DNA of 64,000 nt from positions 512,001-576,000 of the forward strand of contig CAWGAA010000002.1 of the NCBI GenBank assembly GCA_963820525.1, given 5' to 3'. The DNA comes from an uncultured Spirochaetota bacterium. GTDB lineage: Bacteria; Spirochaetota; Spirochaetia; SZUA-6; Fen-1364. Shown here one piece after another: positions 23,878 to 32,598 of the stretch. The first letter of the stretch is position 1. The number at the start of each line of letters is the position of its first letter. The notes beneath the pieces are model-generated. The model was not told where the DNA came from. It saw only the letters and a program-made list of their open reading frames with translations, and searched no databases. Position numbers and translations under genes: made by a program.

Positions 23878-23934
23878 TGCCGGAGACGGGACTTGAACCC
23901 GTACAGCCCTTGCGGGCCGGGGGATTTTAAGTCC
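23878..23934 (-). repeat. att site: 57-bp duplicated 3' part of tRNA-Leu
   Basis: Identical to 32513-32569; identity stops within the anticodon stem. Confidence 0.95.
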
Positions 23935-24114
23935 GTTTTCAATTCCCCACGCGCATACCCCTATTTACTTATGTATACTATTGATATAGAATTAACGCAG
24001 TAGGATAAATCGTGGTATGTCTAAAAAGATGAGAATAGAAAAGGTTCTTCTCAGAAATCATCTCATTTTTCCAGGTATTAAGAGGTAGAGAATCAAGCAA
24101 TAAGGGCGAGAAAT

Positions 24115-26241
24115 ATGATGAAACTCAAGAGGTTTCAAGTAACCGGCTTCCGATCAGTTAGCGATAGCGGCCCAATCGAGACCGATGACGTGACGGCGCT
24201 TATCGGAACGAATGAAGCGGGCAAAACCAACATTCTTCTGCCGCTCTGGAAATTAAGTCCTGCAAAGGAAGGCGAGATCGTGCCTACCGCGGACTACCCG
24301 AGAAAACTCTACAACATTCTTAGAAACCAAAAGCCGAAACCTGTGTTCATAAAAGCCGTATTCGAGGCTGATGACGCGGTCGCACAAGAGCTTTCGGCCA
24401 AGACTGGGATGCCAAAAGACGCCATGAGCGAGATAGAGGTTTCCCGCCGTTTCGATACTGAGTACGAAGTGGATTTTCCGAACGCCAATCCGCTCCGATC
24501 GATCAACACAGAAAGGGCCGCAACGATCATTCAGGGCGGAGAGAGGGAAATCGCTGCCATGGCAGCGGTCGAGGGTGAGAGCGATCTCAAGACGCTCATC
24601 GTGACCTCCCTTCGCACTGCGAAGGAGTCTTTTGGCAACAAGACTGAGGTCAACGCGGCCGATCTGGACAGTGCTCTTGCCGTTATGGGGGGCGTGAAGA
24701 TCGACGCCGCTCCAGCAACAAGCACTATTGCGCCTAGATTTCGCCAAGTGCAAGAGCAGATCGGCGAATTGCGAAAAGGAATTTCTCGGCCTCACCCGCG
24801 AGAAGTCGATGCTGCTGTGAAGATCGTTCTAAAGAACATGCCCAAGTTCGTATATTACTCAACGTACGGAAACCTGGATTCCGAAATCTATCTTCCCCAT
24901 GTGATCGCAAACCTCAAGCGGTCTGACTTGGGCTTAAAGGAACAAGCCAAGGCAAGGACACTTAAAGTGCTTTTCGAGTTCGTGAAACTCCAACCGGAGG
25001 AGATCCTTGAATTGGGCCAAGATTTCAAGGTTACGAACCGTCAGCCCACGGAAGCCGAGATAGCAGCGATCGCCGAAAAAAAGAAACAAAGGAGCATCCT
25101 ACTTCAATCCGCCTCAACTCTCCTAACTACTCAGTTTCGAGAATGGTGGAAGCAGGGGGAATACAGATTCAGGTTCGAAGCGGATGGTGACCACTTCCGG
25201 ATCTGGGTCTCGGATGATAAGCGGCCGGAGGAGATTGAACTCGAGGGCCGCAGTACAGGGCTTCAGTGGTTCCTGAGTTTCTACCTCGTCTTTCTGGTTG
25301 AAAGGGCGGATGCCCATGAGCAGGCCATCCTCTTGTTGGATGAACCAGGACTGTCCCTACATCCACTCGCACAACGCGATCTTTCGCAATTCTTCAATGG
25401 GCTCGCGAGCGACAACCAACTCATATACACGTGCCACTCGCCATTCTTGGTCGATGCTGACCGCCTGGATCGGGCGCGAAAGGTGTATGTTGGCAACGAC
25501 GGCACTAGCAAGGTCACTCCTGATCTGAGAGCATCTGACGATCCGCCAGGGCAACGGGGTGCTGCATACGCAGTTCACGCTGCACTAGGGCTGAGTGTAG
25601 CCGAGAGTTTACTTCTTGGATGCGAGCCCGTTGTAGTGGAAGGTCAATCAGATCAGCACTACCTCACTGCAATCAAGAACCTTCTCATAGCCGCAGGCCG
25701 GTTAAAGCCCGGGCGAGAGCTAGTATTTCCGCCTGCGGGGGGTGTCAAGGGAGTAAAGGCGGTTGTGAGTATTCTCGGAGGGCGAGACGAAGAGCTGCCC
25801 GTTGCTCTATTTGATAGCGATGAACAGGGCCATGCTACGGCGCAAGCGCTTCGAATAGGTCTCTACACTGCCTGTCCAGAACTGGTGTTGGAAATGAAGG
25901 ACTATGCGGGGTTCGAACATGCTGAGGTGGAGGACTTGATCCCACCCGAGGTGATAGCTCGGCAGCTTGATCGTTGGCAGCGAGGCGCGGAAAAGCCATT
26001 TTCTGAGACGGTGAGACAAGGGGAACCCATTGTTGCTCAAATTGAGGCGTGGGCGAAGAACAACCGTGTCACCCTTGAAGTCCCAGGTTGGAAGGTCGAG
26101 CTCTCAATTCGGGTCAAGCGGCAGATGCTATCTGACGGGCCAGCGGCCATTAAGGCTGAAGTTGCGGATAAATGGGTGAAGTTATTCGAGACGTTTCGGG
26201 ATTCTCGGGCAACTGCCCGGGAGCGACAGGCGGGAGAGTGA
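24115..26241 (+). CDS. OLD-family ABC-type ATPase with C-terminal TOPRIM nuclease domain
   Basis: Walker A GTNEAGKT, signature RSTG, Walker B LLLDEPG, CHSPF; TOPRIM VVVEGQSD and FDSD. Confidence 0.85.
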   Translation: MMKLKRFQVTGFRSVSDSGPIETDDVTALIGTNEAGKTNILLPLWKLSPAKEGEIVPTADYPRKLYNILRNQKPKPVFIKAVFEADDAVAQELSAKTGMPKDAMSEIEVSRRFDTEYEVDFPNANPLRSINTERAATIIQGGEREIAAMAAVEGESDLKTLIVTSLRTAKESFGNKTEVNAADLDSALAVMGGVKIDAAPATSTIAPRFRQVQEQIGELRKGISRPHPREVDAAVKIVLKNMPKFVYYSTYGNLDSEIYLPHVIANLKRSDLGLKEQAKARTLKVLFEFVKLQPEEILELGQDFKVTNRQPTEAEIAAIAEKKKQRSILLQSASTLLTTQFREWWKQGEYRFRFEADGDHFRIWVSDDKRPEEIELEGRSTGLQWFLSFYLVFLVERADAHEQAILLLDEPGLSLHPLAQRDLSQFFNGLASDNQLIYTCHSPFLVDADRLDRARKVYVGNDGTSKVTPDLRASDDPPGQRGAAYAVHAALGLSVAESLLLGCEPVVVEGQSDQHYLTAIKNLLIAAGRLKPGRELVFPPAGGVKGVKAVVSILGGRDEELPVALFDSDEQGHATAQALRIGLYTACPELVLEMKDYAGFEHAEVEDLIPPEVIARQLDRWQRGAEKPFSETVRQGEPIVAQIEAWAKNNRVTLEVPGWKVELSIRVKRQMLSDGPAAIKAEVADKWVKLFETFRDSRATARERQAGE

Positions 26242-26266
26242 CCGCCCTTAGAATAGGAGCAAGTCT

Positions 26267-26557
26267 ATGCCAACTTCGGTGAGGAACGTAGCAGGAACCG
26301 CAGATCTTTCCTGCAAATGCGGTTCGTGGATCAAGCATTGGGAGAGAGGATCTGGCAAGAGCGCTCTTGGATGTGGAGTTGTCGGATGTACCGGTCCTGC
26401 TGAAGTTGGCGCGCATGTCACGAAGGTGGGATCTCAAGACAGGGGCAGGTACATAGTGCCGATGTGCACAACCCACAATTTCTACACTTCTATGGACTTA
26501 TCGATCAAGGACAGCGTGCCACTCATTTCGGTCAATTGGCAGAATACTTGCGCGTGA
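26267..26557 (+). CDS. Small Cys/His-rich protein, putative HNH/His-Me-finger nuclease
   Basis: AGGAG RBS; CKC..W..HW, CGVVGC, GAHV, YIVPMCTTHN. Confidence 0.6.
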   Translation: MPTSVRNVAGTADLSCKCGSWIKHWERGSGKSALGCGVVGCTGPAEVGAHVTKVGSQDRGRYIVPMCTTHNFYTSMDLSIKDSVPLISVNWQNTCA

Positions 26558-26880
26558 GGATCCTGTGGCGGGAATCGCACTCGCCACCTCACAGAGATTG
26601 AGACGCACTTTCGCCAACACCTGCGCGGTTTCCCGCCTCAGCGATCTCCTCAAGGGGTAATCGCCCGCCGAAGGCCTCCGATAGCACGCCTGCCACCTGA
26701 ACCGCCCCGGCCTCGGCATGAGCACTGCCAGGGGAAGGCCTGCTCCATCATGAAGGAGGCGGACCGTGCGGTTCATCAATTCGCCGCCCATGCCTGAGCT
26801 TCCGCCCGATTGAGCTGCATGAGCAGCCGTGGCCGGGGAGCGTGCCCGCCATCCCGGATGGCCACCAGGAGCCAAGGGCT
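26498..26880 (-). pseudogene. GC-rich remnant of two coupled small ORFs
   Basis: Headless frame (26776-26880) whose TGA overlaps the ATG of a 92-aa ORF (26498-26776). Confidence 0.35.
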
Positions 26881-27448
26881 TTATAAAGGTGAACTACGAG
26901 CAACCGAAAAGCATTTAGCGAAAGGTGCGCTAATGTATTTCGTTCGCCTTCAGATGGCACATCTCACTGAAGGAATGAAGGTTCTTCAACAGCTTGAAAC
27001 TGTTCCCAGTTTTAAAAGAGTCTTTTCTTCCTGTCGCTCATCTGCGCAAGAAGCATATAAGCGTTTAATACCTTTCACTCAACCAGGACCAGAAAAAACG
27101 TGGTTCGATAATAATGTCGCTACTACGCGTAGTAACTTGACTTTTCACTATCATGAATCAGGAAAATGGATAAACTGGGCATTAGCAGATAGGGCTTCCA
27201 GAGCAGTGGCAGAGCGATCATCAATAACATACGGTGATCACGGACATCTCTGGCGTTTCCATATTGCAGACAATATTCTTGATAGTATTATGTGTCGTAA
27301 AATCTGGAAAATACCCAAATCATCTGATGTACAGAAAGAAGCAGATATAGTAATCAGCAAAATCTATAATATCTATCGCAACTTTATCAACTTTGCATTA
27401 GTATTTATGTTAGAATATTTGAAGCAGACTATTGTAGCCTTGAAATAA
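26877..27448 (+). CDS. Cassette 1 ORF, HEPN-like, probably 5'-truncated
   Basis: AT-rich helical ORF with RSNLTFH (Rx5H); stop 7 bp before attC1; first ATG in the AT-rich part at 26933. Confidence 0.55.
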
Positions 27449-27455
27449 TCTTGGC

Positions 27456-27570
27456 GTCTAGCATGCTGTTGGAGTGACAGAATAGGCTGTCGCCGTGACT
27501 TATAGTTACATGAGTTATGACCTTTTGTACTTAGATGATTCGGGGCGGCAACTCAACAGCGTCGTTGCAC
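27456..27570 (+). other. Integron attC-like site 1 (115 bp)
   Basis: R'' GTCTAGC, L'' arm ATGCTGTTGGAGT pairing with ACTCAACAGCGT with one extrahelical G, R' GTTGCAC. Confidence 0.85.
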
Positions 27571-27620
27571 GCATTTAGACAAGGTGATGTAATACTCCAG
27601 TATCATGCGGGAGGTTATGA

Positions 27621-28520
27621 ATGAACAATAGATTCGATGAAGTAAAAGAACATCTCAGGAAACTTTCAATAATCAAAGAAGCACTGCAAGCTCTTATCCA
27701 TTTCAACGAAGAGGCAATAAGTTCTTTGTCGTGGCAGAATCGGTTCCTGGGTAATAGTTTGATAAGCACATCCTTCGCGATCGATCTATATGGCTCTCTT
27801 GTTGAACCAAAAGTGAATGAGATGTCGGAAACTGACTTCAGAGGGATGATGAATCCACTATCGAACATGGTCCGGTTTGGAACTACGTTCATCACGCTCC
27901 ATAGAACAAAAGACGTAAAGAGCTACTTGCAGACATTTGAGGCAACTGCAAGCGGTGGCTCAGCAGTTTTCTCAGCATCAGTGGCAGATAGCACTGTCAA
28001 TTTCATTGGATTTACACACCCCCAAGAACCGGAGAGAGCTAGAATTCAAGGTCTGCTTGAAACATACTTCAGCCAGCTGAAACCAGAAGAAGACATTAGG
28101 TATATTGAAGAAAGGCTTCCGAAGATTCTCCCAAACGTTGCTGAAGACTTCAAGCACTTCCTTGCCAATTACTACGCGTCAAAGCAGAATGAACTCAAGT
28201 ATCAGGAACTGATTGCATTCAGAACCATCTTTTTTATGAAACTAGTCGAGGAATTTGCGAAATTGCATGGATGTCCAGATTCTGTATCACGGAAAGAGAA
28301 GATTACGTTTTTTGCATTCAAATCTTCGAAAACCACCGACCCCAATGCAGAGAAAATAGCCGAGGCCGCATTCTCTTTATGGAAAACGCTATCTACTCAA
28401 GATAGCTCGGCTTTAAGCGTAAAGATGGGAAACGTCACCGCCAGTTATATCGATTTGCTATTTCACAATGTTCTTATCGTGGCAGCTACGCTCCTAAGGC
28501 AAAATGAGAACTATTGGTAA
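27621..28520 (+). CDS. Cassette 2 ORF, 299-aa hypothetical protein
   Basis: GGAGG RBS; single ORF between attC1 and attC2. Confidence 0.8.
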   Translation: MNNRFDEVKEHLRKLSIIKEALQALIHFNEEAISSLSWQNRFLGNSLISTSFAIDLYGSLVEPKVNEMSETDFRGMMNPLSNMVRFGTTFITLHRTKDVKSYLQTFEATASGGSAVFSASVADSTVNFIGFTHPQEPERARIQGLLETYFSQLKPEEDIRYIEERLPKILPNVAEDFKHFLANYYASKQNELKYQELIAFRTIFFMKLVEEFAKLHGCPDSVSRKEKITFFAFKSSKTTDPNAEKIAEAAFSLWKTLSTQDSSALSVKMGNVTASYIDLLFHNVLIVAATLLRQNENYW

Positions 28521-28535
28521 TATGAACACAAATGC

Positions 28536-28631
28536 GTGTAACATGCGATTGGAGTTGTTCGCCAAGTCTACGCGTGTTGAATCATTTACACATAGATGAT
28601 TCGGGGCGGCAACTCATCAGCTTCGTTAGGT
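28536..28631 (+). other. Integron attC-like site 2 (96 bp)
   Basis: R'' GTGTAAC, GGAGTTG/CAACTCA arms, R' GTTAGGT; 24 nt identical to attC1. Confidence 0.85.
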
Positions 28632-28644
28632 GGTCATAGATTCA

Positions 28645-29652
28645 ATGACATTCGCCCAGCTGATAAACCGTATCCGCACTGAGACCAGATACAAGTCCTG
28701 TTTCGTTAGTGATTCCTCTTGCTCAACAAGAATAGTTAGGTCGCATTCCATTCAGAATTCTCGGATACTTAGGCGTATTTCCTTGAACGGCATGGTCTTA
28801 ACTATTCAAGCATCAGATCGGATACTCGGCTTTTCTTCCGTTGGCCGCAAGACCGCATCGACCTTTTCGGGATTCTGCTCGTTTCACGACGATAAGATTT
28901 TCAAACTGATAGAGACCGACGATTTCTCTCCTATTGATGCCCACTTCGTACGGCACGCTTACAGGGCACTCGCTCTTGAATACAACAAAAAAACTTCAAT
29001 CCTCAGAATGTACACTAAAATTCTTGAGTTGATGGAAACAAAACAATGGCAGAGATACCTTCGTGACTGCACAGATATAAAACCTTCGCGCGCAAGTCCC
29101 GCCGAAACTTACAGAGATGTCGTTTCATACATTACTGGATCTCAGATTGAACTCGACAATATGAATAGGTTCCGAGCGCTGTTCGATGTTTTCTTTGAGA
29201 CCTCCCACAACGACTTCTTGTCTTCCTTCTCAGTATCCTTTCCCTCTGAGTATCCCATCGCTGCCACATCGTCGATAACGATTGAGCATGACTTTCGAGG
29301 TAACCCAGTAAACGTTTTCCCTAAATCGGACATCTGCGATGAATCGAAACCGCTCTATCTAACTATTTTTCCACAAAACGGGCGTACACATGTTCTCCTC
29401 TCTCACTATGAAAGGGACCGCGACACCTACCGACCTTTAAGAAATGATCTGAAGAGTATGCGCATTAGAGATCTGAAGGTTGCAGTGACAAATTTGATTG
29501 CAAATCACATTGAGAACTTCTATGTCTCACCGGTTTATTGGAAGAGACTGGACGAACAAACAAAAGTCCATTTTCTCGAGGTTTTTCGGCAAACGCTTTT
29601 TTTCGCTGGGAGCGACTTGGCTCAACTTAAAGATATCAATATCTTCGTCTGA
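28645..29652 (+). CDS. Cassette 3 ORF with N-terminal Cys/His (HNH-like) domain
   Basis: C-x6-C, SHSIQN, ASTFSGFCSFHD..IF..IE pattern. Confidence 0.7.
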   Translation: MTFAQLINRIRTETRYKSCFVSDSSCSTRIVRSHSIQNSRILRRISLNGMVLTIQASDRILGFSSVGRKTASTFSGFCSFHDDKIFKLIETDDFSPIDAHFVRHAYRALALEYNKKTSILRMYTKILELMETKQWQRYLRDCTDIKPSRASPAETYRDVVSYITGSQIELDNMNRFRALFDVFFETSHNDFLSSFSVSFPSEYPIAATSSITIEHDFRGNPVNVFPKSDICDESKPLYLTIFPQNGRTHVLLSHYERDRDTYRPLRNDLKSMRIRDLKVAVTNLIANHIENFYVSPVYWKRLDEQTKVHFLEVFRQTLFFAGSDLAQLKDINIFV

Positions 29653-29654
29653 CC

Positions 29655-29680
29655 GTCTAGCATGCTGTTGGAGTTGACCG
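29655..29680 (+). other. Left half of attC-like site 3 (no right half found)
   Basis: CGTCTAGCATGCTGTTGGAGT, 21 nt identical to the start of attC1, directly after the cassette 3 stop. Confidence 0.7.
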
Positions 29681-29953
29681 CTTAAGCTACCTGTCTTTAG
29701 GCCGCCCTTGACCAGTCGGGCTCGGAGCTAAAGTTTCAATGAGTTTCGATTTGCATGGAATGCTCTGATTGAGTTGTTTAGAAGACAGATATAGAAGGTG
29801 TATCAATCTGGAGTTCCCCCGATTTCGTGGACACCCTGAATTGCACCTGCGTCTCGGTTTCGGGGGGGTATCCAAACACCACCTGCCTTCCGAAAACGCA
29901 ACCACGGCCCTCTACGCGCAAGGCTTTTTCCTCACTCTGGCTTGGATCGTCAA

Positions 29954-30823
29954 TCATGCCGTCTTCCGCTCCTCGAGCTCCTCATATTCGGTCGGTGTGA
30001 GGTAGCCGAGGTACGAGTGAAGCCGCTTGCGATTATAGAAGATCTCCACGTATTCGAATATTGCTCTCCTGGCCTCCTCTCTGCTTCGGTAGATCTTGTC
30101 CCGAATCAACTCTGCTCTCAAGGTCTTGAAAAACGTCTCCGCGCACGCGTTGTCCCAACAGTCGCCCTTACGGCTCATGCTTTGAATGAATCCGTGCCCT
30201 TTGGCAAACTTTTCAAACTGACCGCTGGTATACTGCACACCGCGATCGGAATGAAACAACAGTCCCCGCGGCGGGCGGCGACGAATCGCGGCCATGACTA
30301 CCGCCGTCAGCACCAGCTCGGCACTCAGCTCGCAGCTCAGCGACCAGCCCGCCACTCGACGTGAGTACAGATCCAGTACGATGCATAAATACATCCACCC
30401 TTCGGCTGTCGCAACGTAGGTTATGTCGGACACCCACACGCGATTCGCCGCGGAGGCTTCGAAGTTCCTGTTCACTATGTTTTCGGCCACTTCCTGGCCG
30501 TCTTTCGAGTGCGTGGTCACTACAAACCGCCTCTTCGGCTGCGGCCCAAGGGCATTCTCTCTCATGATTCGGGCAACTCGGTTCTTCCCCACATGCCGCC
30601 CACGCCTCAGCAGTTCTTCCCGCATGCGCGGGCTTCCGTAGCTGTGACGCACCTCGCCCTGGATCTTCCGGATCTGCTCGATCAGCTCCTTCTCCTCGAG
30701 TGCTCGTGCACTCTCTTTACCGTCGAGCCAGGCATAGTACCCACTGCGCGCTACTCCCAATACTTCCGCCATCTTCTCCACGCCGTGGGTTCCCCGCTGT
30801 TTACTCATGATCTGGTACTTCAT
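29954..30823 (-). CDS. IS3-family transposase OrfB (DDE)
   Basis: YGSPRM, WVSDITY, FHSDRGVQY, SRKGDCWDNA..E, YNRKRLHS.LGY. Confidence 0.95.
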   Translation of the reverse strand: MKYQIMSKQRGTHGVEKMAEVLGVARSGYYAWLDGKESARALEEKELIEQIRKIQGEVRHSYGSPRMREELLRRGRHVGKNRVARIMRENALGPQPKRRFVVTTHSKDGQEVAENIVNRNFEASAANRVWVSDITYVATAEGWMYLCIVLDLYSRRVAGWSLSCELSAELVLTAVVMAAIRRRPPRGLLFHSDRGVQYTSGQFEKFAKGHGFIQSMSRKGDCWDNACAETFFKTLRAELIRDKIYRSREEARRAIFEYVEIFYNRKRLHSYLGYLTPTEYEELEERKTA

Positions 30824-31110
30824 CTCGGGGGTCTGGAGAAGATGGCTGTTGCTTTTCTTAGGATGTCCCGTTCCTCACGCAACTCCTTGTTCTCTTTGCG
30901 CAAGGCGGCCAATTCCTCGTCACGGGACCTGCCGTTGCCTGGGAAAGCTCGTGTCCCGTCCTCACTGAATTGCTTCCTCCAGCGGTAGATCTGTCCGCTG
31001 CCGATTCCCAGATCCCGTTCAATCTCATGTCCCGGCTTTGTCCCTGACTCCAGGAGCCGGATGGCATCGAGCTTGAACTCTTTGGTGTATTTCTTCCTCG
31101 TGTCTGCCAT
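30820..31110 (-). CDS. IS3-family transposase OrfA (HTH)
   Basis: RKKYTKEFK, RDLGI...IYRWRK, ERDILRKA; orfB in the -1 frame with ATGA overlap. Confidence 0.93.
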   Translation of the reverse strand: MADTRKKYTKEFKLDAIRLLESGTKPGHEIERDLGIGSGQIYRWRKQFSEDGTRAFPGNGRSRDEELAALRKENKELREERDILRKATAIFSRPPR

Positions 31111-31380
31111 TGCCTTTCCTTACCCCTCTAAAATACTGCTTAACCATGTGTCTATGAAATCGGGGTAGGTCCAATCTCTACCTTGGCAGCTGAAGATCAA
31201 GAGATATTAAAGACAAATAGTGACTTTTATGTCGTGTTCTCTCTGCTATCTTTGGCTACGGTCGCATCCTCAGCATATGCGATGTCTACATGGAACGCAA
31301 CCTTTCAATTCTTCGGCTTGCATTCTAGCCCTTTCTTCCACTAAACTCAACAATTATCAGAAAGCAAGGAGGAAACGTTT

Positions 31381-32370
31381 ATGTCTAAAGGCGTGATTGA
31401 CAGACCTATTCTTGAAACCCCCATCGCGATCATCGACTTCGAGACAACGGGGCTTGCACCTGGGCCAGACCGCGTCGTGGAAGTCTCCGTGGTCCGTGCT
31501 GAACCTGGAAAGGAGCCTGTTCTTGTTCTCGATACGCTAATCAATCCTGATCGCCCTATGGCAGCCACGGAAATCCATGGAATTACAGATCGTGATGTTG
31601 TTGACGCTCCCAGGTTTTTCGAGATAGGCGGCGACTTTATTAGGGCGATCTCTGGCTGTGTTGTTGCTTCCTATAATGTCTATTTCGATATTGGCTTTCT
31701 TACCTATGAGCTTCGTAAAATTAGAGTTGCTTGCGTGCCGCCCCATGTTTGTCTTATGTATTTAAGGCCACTACTTGAAATGGGAAAACGCTGCTCCCTA
31801 TTTACAGCTTGCTGTGAGTCAGGGATCCCGCTTCCTCATGCTCACCAATCCGCCGCTGACGCATTCGCGTCAGCACAACTTTGGAAAATATATCTGAGTG
31901 CCATGGAAGAGCATGGGATGCAGAAGTTCAAGGATCTTTCCCAAAAAAAACAATACAAATTTCTTAATAGTCTTGAAGCGGATCCGCTATCACCGCCAAC
32001 CGAAGCTGAAATGCCCCATCTGGCCAACGTAAAATCACGTTCTGTGAAGATGCAACAAGAGTATCATAGAGGCGGAGCTCAGCCGCCCACACAAACAGTT
32101 GACAGGCATGATGTTATCCACCGTTACTGGAGTGAGCTCACCACAGTCCTCTCAGATTTAGAACTTACTCGTGATGAAGCCAATGGACTCGCCAAGCTGA
32201 GGAATCAACTGAAGTTGACACAAGAAGAAATCAAAGGAATGCATGCTCGCGTTTTTGCGGATCTTCTACTTCTTACGATCGAAGACAGAATCATAAGCGC
32301 TGACGAACAAAACCAGATTCAGCGCCTCTATAGGTGCCTCGCGAAGCTCGGATGGGCACCGGGACAGTAA
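31381..32370 (+). CDS. DEDDh (DnaQ-like) 3'-5' exonuclease with helical TerB-like C-terminus
   Basis: IDFETTG, YNVYFD, HQSAADA; AAGGAGG RBS. Confidence 0.85.
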   Translation: MSKGVIDRPILETPIAIIDFETTGLAPGPDRVVEVSVVRAEPGKEPVLVLDTLINPDRPMAATEIHGITDRDVVDAPRFFEIGGDFIRAISGCVVASYNVYFDIGFLTYELRKIRVACVPPHVCLMYLRPLLEMGKRCSLFTACCESGIPLPHAHQSAADAFASAQLWKIYLSAMEEHGMQKFKDLSQKKQYKFLNSLEADPLSPPTEAEMPHLANVKSRSVKMQQEYHRGGAQPPTQTVDRHDVIHRYWSELTTVLSDLELTRDEANGLAKLRNQLKLTQEEIKGMHARVFADLLLLTIEDRIISADEQNQIQRLYRCLAKLGWAPGQ

Positions 32371-32512: not shown

Positions 32513-32598
32513 TGCCGGAGACGGGACTTGAACCCGTACAGCCCTTGCGGGCCGGGGGATTTTAAGTCCCCTGTGTCTCCCAATTCCACCACTCCGGC
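32513..32598 (-). tRNA. tRNA-Leu(TAA)
   Basis: 86-nt cloverleaf: GCCGGAG acceptor stem, GGGGA-CTTAAAA-TCCCC anticodon arm, long variable arm, GGTTCAAGTCC; CCA not encoded. Confidence 0.97.

Follow-up and report, generated by a model that had tools for sequence, protein, structure and literature searches.

Clusters of attC sites lacking an integron integrase (CALINs) have been described, as have their presence alongside complete integrons and the ways in which they may originate, and 83% of them hold <6 attC sites (Cury et al. 2016, PMC4889954). Complete integrons can be far larger; the Vibrio cholerae superintegron holds 179 cassettes (PMC5027507). Recent reports describe integron cassettes encoding phage defence (10.1101/2024.07.02.601719, PMC12614218). 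Here we analysed a 64,000-nucleotide stretch of the genome of an uncultured Spirochaetota bacterium (contig CAWGAA010000002.1, positions 512,001 to 576,000), hereafter the window. Its region from 26.88 to 29.70 kb is probably a stranded, decaying fragment of an integron cassette array, whose attC family is that of the genome's own integrons; its membership in the CALINs is itself confirmed. The element therefore belongs to an already-known kind, and knowledge of integrons is left unchanged by it.

attC sites of the window and of the resident integrons

The fragment includes the following features:

26933..27448, plus strand: ORF1 (open reading frame 1), 5'-truncated, of a possibly HEPN-like family; 171 residues from the first ATG; 199 relatives at E ≤0.001
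27456..27570, plus strand: attC site 1, decayed; nhmmer 69.0 bits, E 9.6e-19
27565..28625, plus strand: cassette 2, 1061 bp; G/TT crossovers at 27564/27565 and 28625/28626
27621..28520, plus strand: ORF2, 299 residues, a near-orphan; one homologue at 59% identity
28536..28631, plus strand: attC site 2; nhmmer 60.4 bits, E 4.5e-16; variable part 20 nt shorter
28645..29652, plus strand: ORF3, 335 residues, of a widespread uncharacterised family; 8 homologues and 32 distant loci in many phyla
29655..29699, plus strand: attC site 3, left half only; nhmmer 25.9 bits, E 2.1e-5; profile positions 9-52 of 124

A preliminary description of this locus, made from its letters alone, had reported three co-oriented AT-rich ORFs, each followed within 2–15 bp by a related palindrome. 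These coordinates and counts hold: the ORF stops at 27446-27448, 28518-28520, and 29650-29652 precede the sites by 7, 15, and 2 bp. A repeat finder agreed with the reported 24 identical nt shared by sites 1 and 2, which lie within a 43-nt match of 88%, and with the 21-nt exact match between sites 1 and 3, of which a third copy occurs in site 2 at 81%. A 17-mer from the left half occurs 3 times at ≤3 mismatches, a number that 0 of 100 shuffles reach. Both boxes of site 2 are intact (R'' GTGTAAC, 28536-28542; R' GTTAGGT, 28625-28631), so that it has the R'' AAC and the R' GTT triplets. Site 1 has GTT in its R' box (GTTGCAC, 27564-27570) but AGC in its R'' box (GTCTAGC, 27456-27462), and site 3 has AGC in the same R'' sequence (29655-29661), while its R' box and right arm are absent.

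Complementarity between the start of a cassette and the flank of its own R'' box, the trace of a circular form, was found in cassettes 2 and 3, as previously reported. The 13 nt from 27564 are complementary to 28530-28542 at 12/13, and the 12 nt from 28625 pair with 29650-29661 at 9/12 by Watson–Crick pairs and at 12/12 when three G-T pairs are counted; the start of cassette 1 is missing. Cassette 2 is the sole unit that still lies between two R' boxes. The guanine plus cytosine (G+C) content is 0.39–0.44 across 27200-29599 compared with 0.59–0.67 in the chromosome flanks; the values for the fragment, the resident array described below, and the genome are 0.425, 0.443, and 0.60, respectively.

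The attC sites were called with a profile built from 107 seed sites of the genome itself together with pair counts, which substituted for the IntegronFinder covariance model. A search of the genome with this profile (nhmmer) yielded 188 matches at E ≤0.001. Of these, 177 lie on one strand at C1:683758-824376, directly behind an integron integrase gene (intI) at C1:682092-683030; 6 lie behind a second intI (C1:1954228-1955157); 3 lie in the window; and lone sites of the same family occur at C2:54094-53981 (minus strand) and C3:828844-828965. The two intI genes, whose existence elsewhere in the genome had been surmised, are full-length and without stops, and score 410.7 and 448.6 bits against the curated TIGR02249 cut-off of 265. 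A cognate integrase (IntI) is thus encoded in the same genome, as each intI is followed by attC sites of the window family. The region C1:682092-824376 is a 141-kb sedentary chromosomal integron. Its median cassette length is 425 bp, it holds many near-identical small cassettes, and eight partial attC matches within it suggest insertions into sites. A short tyrosine recombinase at C3:825829-826608, whose 97 bits fall short of the IntI cut-off, lies ~2.2 kb from the lone C3 site.

In the resident array, the R'' AAC and R' GTT triplets are invariant in 173/173 aligned sites, and the stems are 96–100% Watson–Crick with compensatory changes: pair 23/106 is G-C in 109, C-G in 51, and A-T in 7 sites; pair 26/103 is T-A in 91 and C-G in 78; and pair 27/102 is T-A in 135, A-T in 30, and C-G in 4. 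These compensatory changes support the attC hairpin. Two unpaired bases in the R''/L'' arm, at profile columns 22 and 29, have the canonical spacing of 6 bp. Read on the bottom strand, 173/173 sites carry C as the extrahelical base within L'', and at the far position 137 of the 173 carry T and 36 carry A. The published description of attC sites, with which the family otherwise agrees, gives G as usual in L'' plus a conserved T (PMC5027507); as G is stated there only as the usual base, the C in L'' counts as a variant. On folding, the bottom strands of resident sites form the expected hairpin, and so does site 2, with its R box paired. In site 1, 10/11 pairs of the outer and middle L stems are kept, the inner stem keeps 2/5 pairs, and the R box has 4/7 Watson–Crick pairs on the bottom strand.

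The window sites match this own-array profile at E 1e-18, 5e-16, and 2e-5. By sequence, they share their family with the 177 + 6 integron attC sites, all on another contig, and we read the three palindromes as genuine integron attC sites, as had been proposed. A 22-mer around the 11-nt motif that the preliminary description had singled out occurs 85 times on the forward and 0 times on the reverse strand of the genome, whereas its backwards control occurs on neither strand. By itself, the 11-mer has 2 matches in the window, which is no more than chance, as 46 of 100 shuffles reach that number. In a comparison of 92 genomes of the order, the attC motif counted 131 forward and 1 reverse here and 0–7 per strand elsewhere, about the control level, so the motif is private to this genome among those searched; the relative G004 has a related motif variant at cassette-like spacing.

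A six-frame search of the whole genome with TIGR02249 and PF00589 revealed no integron integrase within 4 kb of the sites and no pseudogene within 10 kb. The sole match on the window's contig (C2), at C2:15458-15859, is ~520 kb away, in agreement with the earlier claim of an array lacking an integrase: no integron integrase or other tyrosine recombinase lies on the contig within ~500 kb. Three close plus-strand matches (27456-27568, 28533-28631, and 29656-29699), two full length and one a left half, supply the at least two attC sites that define a CALIN. We assign the element to the CALINs because these attC sites are present and because contig C2 lacks an integron integrase or other tyrosine recombinase, except for C2:15458-15859.

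Broken ends and probable wear of the sites

Two features mark the left end of the fragment:

26558..26876, unstranded: G+C-rich (0.658) left flank of 319 bp, of unknown origin; the cassette bodies have 0.297-0.552
26858..26880, unstranded: left break, falling within the ORF1 gene; ORF1-family similarity begins and G+C drops here

All three ORFs had been taken as cassette genes, and their coordinates stand, but ORF1 does not stand as a whole gene: judged from its family alignment, it is the 3' three quarters of one. The full-length family, defined by 199 relatives (E ≤0.001) from a profile-free exhaustive search, has ~225 residues, and in most of these relatives residue 1 of ORF1 aligns to position ~60. 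The ORF1 frame is open upstream to 26810, within unrelated G+C-rich DNA. When the open frame from 26810 was aligned, similarity to the family started at ~26858-26880, corresponding to family positions ~30-36. The N-terminal helix of the family, with nearly invariant M, N, and D, is lacking in the window copy and is replaced by unrelated DNA of 0.658 G+C. The left flank (26558-26876) has no match in the genome or in the relatives, and no homologue was found for the 125-residue minus-strand ORF that it contains. At the right break, site 3 covers ~44 nt of an attC and is followed by 109 bp of unmatched DNA before an insertion sequence (IS). Even when 7-nt words were used, the flanks 26242-26880, 29700-29808, and 31174-31380 matched nowhere else in the genome.

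IntI cuts at G/TT of R'. Neither break lies at G/TT of an R' box, and the element is a fragment and not an intact array. The complement of the cassette 1 R'' flank is absent in 26200-27000, where the best local match, scoring 12, is a distant 8-nt chance one. Short public freshwater-sediment contigs run across both breaks without a difference, so that neither break is an assembly error, although these runs may represent the source sample itself. This comparison covered four of six runs from two studies, at low depth and with rare variants dropped. In these contigs no joint spans 27565-28625 and no circle or excision product was seen, though data of this depth could not have shown one. The only joint listed links 29690 to 27523 through 33 intervening letters and represents an attC of the resident array that aligns to the two half-sites. 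None of the runs listed as containing the stretch was an RNA run. We also considered a gene once interrupted by the fragment. In-silico removal of the fragment and the IS opens only a minus-strand frame of 165–167 codons, and the idea of a restored gene was dropped, as the larger part of this frame is the 125-residue ORF without homologue.

The sites themselves also appear worn. The window scores of 69.0, 60.4, and 25.9 bits compare with a resident median of 101.3, and 32 of the 177 resident sites score <69. In site 1, one base and the inner CCGCC stem arm are gone, the right half is intact, and 43 nt are 97.7% identical to resident sites. Site 1 keeps 14/23 aligned stem pairs (16/23 with the R' tail added by eye) and site 2 keeps 16/23, against a resident median of 20 pairs; 12 of 177 resident sites keep ≤15. 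Sites 1 and 3 have AGC at the R'' triplet that reads AAC in 173/173 resident sites, a change that places an A-C mismatch beside the bottom-strand cleavage point. Taken together, the changes would fit relaxed selection, that is, a decaying array. Cassettes 1 and 3 are not precisely excisable because cassette 1 lacks an upstream site and cassette 3 lacks an R' box; judged by its boxes, only cassette 2 is possibly mobilisable in trans. The earlier picture of a captured array open to shuffling in trans thus survives for a fragment with cassette 2 as the candidate, but not for an intact, shuffle-ready array, since both ends are broken and sites 1 and 3 carry AGC.

Several observations weigh against a stranded and decaying fragment and were considered together. 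(i) The scores of the window sites remain within the resident range, and little has changed in site 2 or in the right half of site 1, which suggests that decay is partial and that excision of cassette 2 may be possible. (ii) The GTCTAGC shared by sites 1 and 3 is unlikely to represent two independent random changes and may be an inherited variant of another array rather than decay. In the resident array, the R'' type GTCTAAC occurs in 6/173 sites and GTCTAGC in 0/173, a hint that the box was inherited from a different array or that conversion took place between the two sites. (iii) The missing 5' part of ORF1 has no copy elsewhere in the genome, and hence there is no donor scar. (iv) The position of the left break is uncertain by ~20 nt, since tblastn similarity extends to 26840-26861 and the composition shifts at ~26877. 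(v) The in-frame open stretch from 26810 could yield a chimeric, possibly working protein. (vi) The attC calls depend on the genome's own profile instead of the IntegronFinder attC model.

Cassette genes and the tRNA-Leu island

All three cassette genes are single-copy, without a duplicate in the 141-kb array or in the rest of the genome. A GGGAGG lies ~6 nt upstream of the ORF2 ATG, and 4 promoter-like sites were found compared with 5.4 expected, a signal not above chance.

R-x4-6-H is the signature of HEPN proteins. The ORF1 family contains an R-x5-H motif in which, among 53 sequences, F130 and H131 never vary and R125 hardly does. A structure model of one full-length member of the family (predicted local distance difference test score, pLDDT, 96.1) best matched the Vibrio integron cassette protein Vpc_cass2 (3jrt_A; Z 9.8, root-mean-square deviation 4.1, 147 residues), and it also matched HEPN toxins of HEPN-MNT pairs (7ae2_A, Z 7.8; 5yep_B, Z 7.4); Z values below ~13 are common between unrelated helical bundles, so that the range of 7.4–9.8 is within noise. 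Foldseek gave no match for this model at E ≤0.001, and a Pfam HEPN match is absent from the family. The predicted HEPN-like nature of the ORF1 family is accordingly offered as a lead only, as is an anti-phage role of the cassettes.

ORF2 and ORF3 belong to no known family in four libraries. The Atlas scores of ORF2 are ≤0.82, including 0.80 for the AbiJ-NTD3 cluster, and lie below the level of evidence. The closest ORF3 relatives have 54% and 46% identity; at 22–30% identity, the family extends to Firmicutes, Pseudomonas, Nitrospira, Chloroflexota, Saccharimonadales, and others. Among 30 sequences, H34, C78, H81, and D82 are invariant and C26 is nearly invariant, and some members have a SEC-C motif at their end. 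The ORF3 model (pLDDT 93) had no solved-fold match in the Protein Data Bank at E ≤0.001 by Foldseek, and a wide VIA fold search gave a best Z of 5.5, from a helical hairpin only.

That homologues of these ORFs should be flanked by attC sites had been an expectation of the preliminary description, and it gained nothing from the ORF3 loci scanned. A first version of our hairpin detector was too strict and missed positive controls; the relaxed version finds 36/40 resident sites, finds window site 2, and misses site 1. With it, attC-like hairpins were found at 3/35 ORF3-homologue loci (L038, L049, and L051) compared with 9/175 shuffles, which is not above chance; 35 of the 38 loci were scanned, the other 3 being not on file or having <120 nt downstream. 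Most of the distant relatives (22–30% identity), several of them in Firmicutes, are thus not visibly cassette-borne. At L038 (a Chloroflexota metagenome-assembled genome) and L049 (a Minwuiaceae metagenome-assembled genome), strong hairpins bounded by AAC...GTT lie 110–260 nt past the ORF3 homologue, with -23.4 and -30.5 kcal/mol over 111 and 145 nt; they could be attC sites of other integrons.

The fragment lies within an island of 8.6 kb bounded by 57-bp exact repeats, with the following features:

23878..23934, unstranded: 57-bp copy of the tRNA-Leu 3' end, 100% identical to 32513-32569; distal island boundary
24115..26241, plus strand: OLD-family ATPase-nuclease-like gene, 708 residues, island cargo and not a cassette; Pfam AAA_15 6e-21 and AAA_21, PADLOC Old 1.4e-22 and AriA 4.5e-21
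26267..26557, plus strand: ORF of 96 residues; no family in four libraries
29809..31173, minus strand: IS3-family IS; rve and HTH_Tnp_1 domains, 26-nt terminal inverted repeats
31381..32370, plus strand: DEDDh exonuclease gene of defence-candidate type, island cargo; Pfam RNase_T 1.3e-18, PADLOC PDC-S48 6.8e-58
32513..32598, minus strand: tRNA-Leu(taa), the island attachment site (ARAGORN)

The tRNA-Leu, the 57-bp repeats, and an empty site in relatives bear out the location inside a tRNA island that had been proposed. In 8/30 relatives (G001, G002, G004, G007, G011, G013, G014, and G018), the site is empty, the ABC-transporter gene and the tRNA-Leu being adjacent. In five others (G005, G006, G008, G010, and G017), DNA beside the ABC-transporter gene is 73–81% identical to the distal 140–200 bp of the island. 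This match (window 23878-24076, A+T-rich) includes the tRNA repeat in four of the five relatives; G005 keeps only its last 12 nt and has 34 kb between the ABC-transporter gene and the tRNA-Leu without a tyrosine recombinase in between. In the remaining relatives, the two island flanks were on different contigs or were not both found. Neither the island nor the window has a PF00589 match, and the gene adjoining the tRNA is the exonuclease gene. Related elements without an integrase seem to recur at this tRNA-Leu site.

The IS3 element has intact 3-bp target repeats (ATC, 29806-29808 and 31174-31176) and is a later simple insertion. A copy 99.85% identical (C1:1965736-1967100) lies ~2 kb past the last attC of the second integron; counted with this one, there are three further copies in the genome (98–99.85%), the others being at C1:1284616-1285940 and C3:333437-334804. 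We considered an IS-mediated transfer from the second integron and rejected it, because the window IS has intact 3-bp repeats and lies 109 bp beyond the break, and so did not cause the truncation.

Origin of the fragment and comparison with known systems

Neither end of the fragment is at a cutting position of IntI, as the left one falls within a gene and the right one within the variable part of an attC; by its sequence, the fragment probably did not arrive by a clean IntI reaction. A piece of an array would instead have arrived by break-and-join or rearrangement, or an array would later have been eroded by deletions on both sides. Its genes would be cut off from attI and the cassette promoter, with expression only from local or read-through transcription. 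In principle, either IntI could still act on sites 1 and 2 by folding their bottom strands and cleaving at their R' boxes, so as to free cassette 2 as a circle and re-insert it at attI.

These data were weighed against other accounts of the locus. An insertion that IntI itself made, in which a three-cassette circle entered a secondary site of the island and deletions later trimmed cassette 1 at its start and the third attC at its end, is possible but doubtful. Among the origins published for CALINs is insertion at secondary sites (Cury et al. 2016, PMC4889954), and the ~55 nt of A+T-rich DNA before the ORF1 ATG resemble the 56-nt leader of cassette 2; however, this account requires two further independent deletions, no GTT/GWT junction and no complement of the cassette 1 R'' flank occur near 26877, and the family alignment indicates that coding sequence, and not a leader alone, is missing. 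We consider it somewhat less probable that the fragment is a live reservoir, an intact integron satellite whose cassettes are regularly excised and re-inserted in trans by IntI from the other contig. Two full-length intI genes, a shared attC family, and a cassette 2 with both R' boxes and ends complementary at 12/13 are what such a reservoir would need, and exchange between CALINs and integrons was proposed by Cury et al. 2016 (PMC4889954). Against it stand a cassette 1 with a truncated gene and no upstream site, a cassette 3 with no R' box, and a site 1 with AGC, a lost inner stem, and an R box of 4/7 Watson–Crick pairs; nor is there a trace of exchange, as neither the 141-kb array nor the rest of the genome holds a duplicate of any of the three genes.

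The remnant of an island-borne integron whose own intI and attI were deleted is quite improbable. The loss of intI is likewise a published origin of CALINs (PMC4889954), and the island also lost, or never had, an integrase of its own, but a six-frame search through stops revealed no remnant of intI or another tyrosine recombinase near the window at E ≤0.01, the left flank matches the intI-proximal region of neither integron, and the first unit is cut inside a gene and not at attI. That the palindromes are unrelated to integrons, being ordinary intergenic repeats or terminators that resemble attC, has a negligible probability. The chance-level count of the 11-mer in the window and attC calls made without the IntegronFinder model would speak for it, whereas a family shared with 183 sites behind two intI genes, covarying stems, invariant AAC and GTT boxes, and complementary cassette ends speak against it.

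The stranded and decaying fragment hence remains our preferred reading, and a more speculative extension of it concerns its source. The fragment may derive not from the resident array but from an integron carried by a different strain of this lineage, and may have been brought by the tRNA-Leu island; islands of this recurrent family without an integrase would then act as IntI-independent vehicles, possibly for defence genes, between strains and would fix cassettes outside the integron. This is hinted at by GTCTAGC in sites 1 and 3 but in 0/173 resident sites, by the three genes uncopied in the 141-kb array, and by the related island ends at the same tRNA site in five relatives, and we hold it to be unlikely on balance.

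The locus offers a clean illustration of the way in which a CALIN can form and decay beside a very large resident integron. The attC family ties the origin of the fragment to this lineage; the breakpoints indicate that the fragment was not placed by an integrase, or at least not left by one; and the changes in the sites show what erodes first after cassettes leave an array. Three uncharacterised cassette genes are moreover placed in a neighbourhood of defence genes, which fits the reports of phage-defence cassettes (10.1101/2024.07.02.601719, PMC12614218).

Comparison with known systems revealed that (i) the element shares with the CALINs described in PMC4889954 at least two co-oriented attC sites, the absence of a nearby intI, a small size, unknown cassette functions, an IntI in the genome, and an IS close by. 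Unlike known CALINs, it is broken at both ends away from the recombination points, is set in a tRNA island amid defence-type genes, and has two of its three sites changed at the otherwise invariant R'' triplet; (ii) it shares with the sedentary chromosomal integron at C1:682092-824376 the attC family, the low G+C, and the organisation in gene-plus-attC units. By contrast, it lacks intI, attI, and a cassette promoter, its three genes are uncopied there, and its site scores fall within the bottom fifth of those of the resident sites; (iii) the resident integron itself, with 177 attC matches over 141 kb, is similar in size to the Vibrio cholerae superintegron; and (iv) the surrounding island has the tRNA 3'-end repeats at both borders, the low G+C, the defence-type cargo, and the absence from relatives of tRNA-anchored genomic (defence) islands, but, unlike these, it has no integrase gene.

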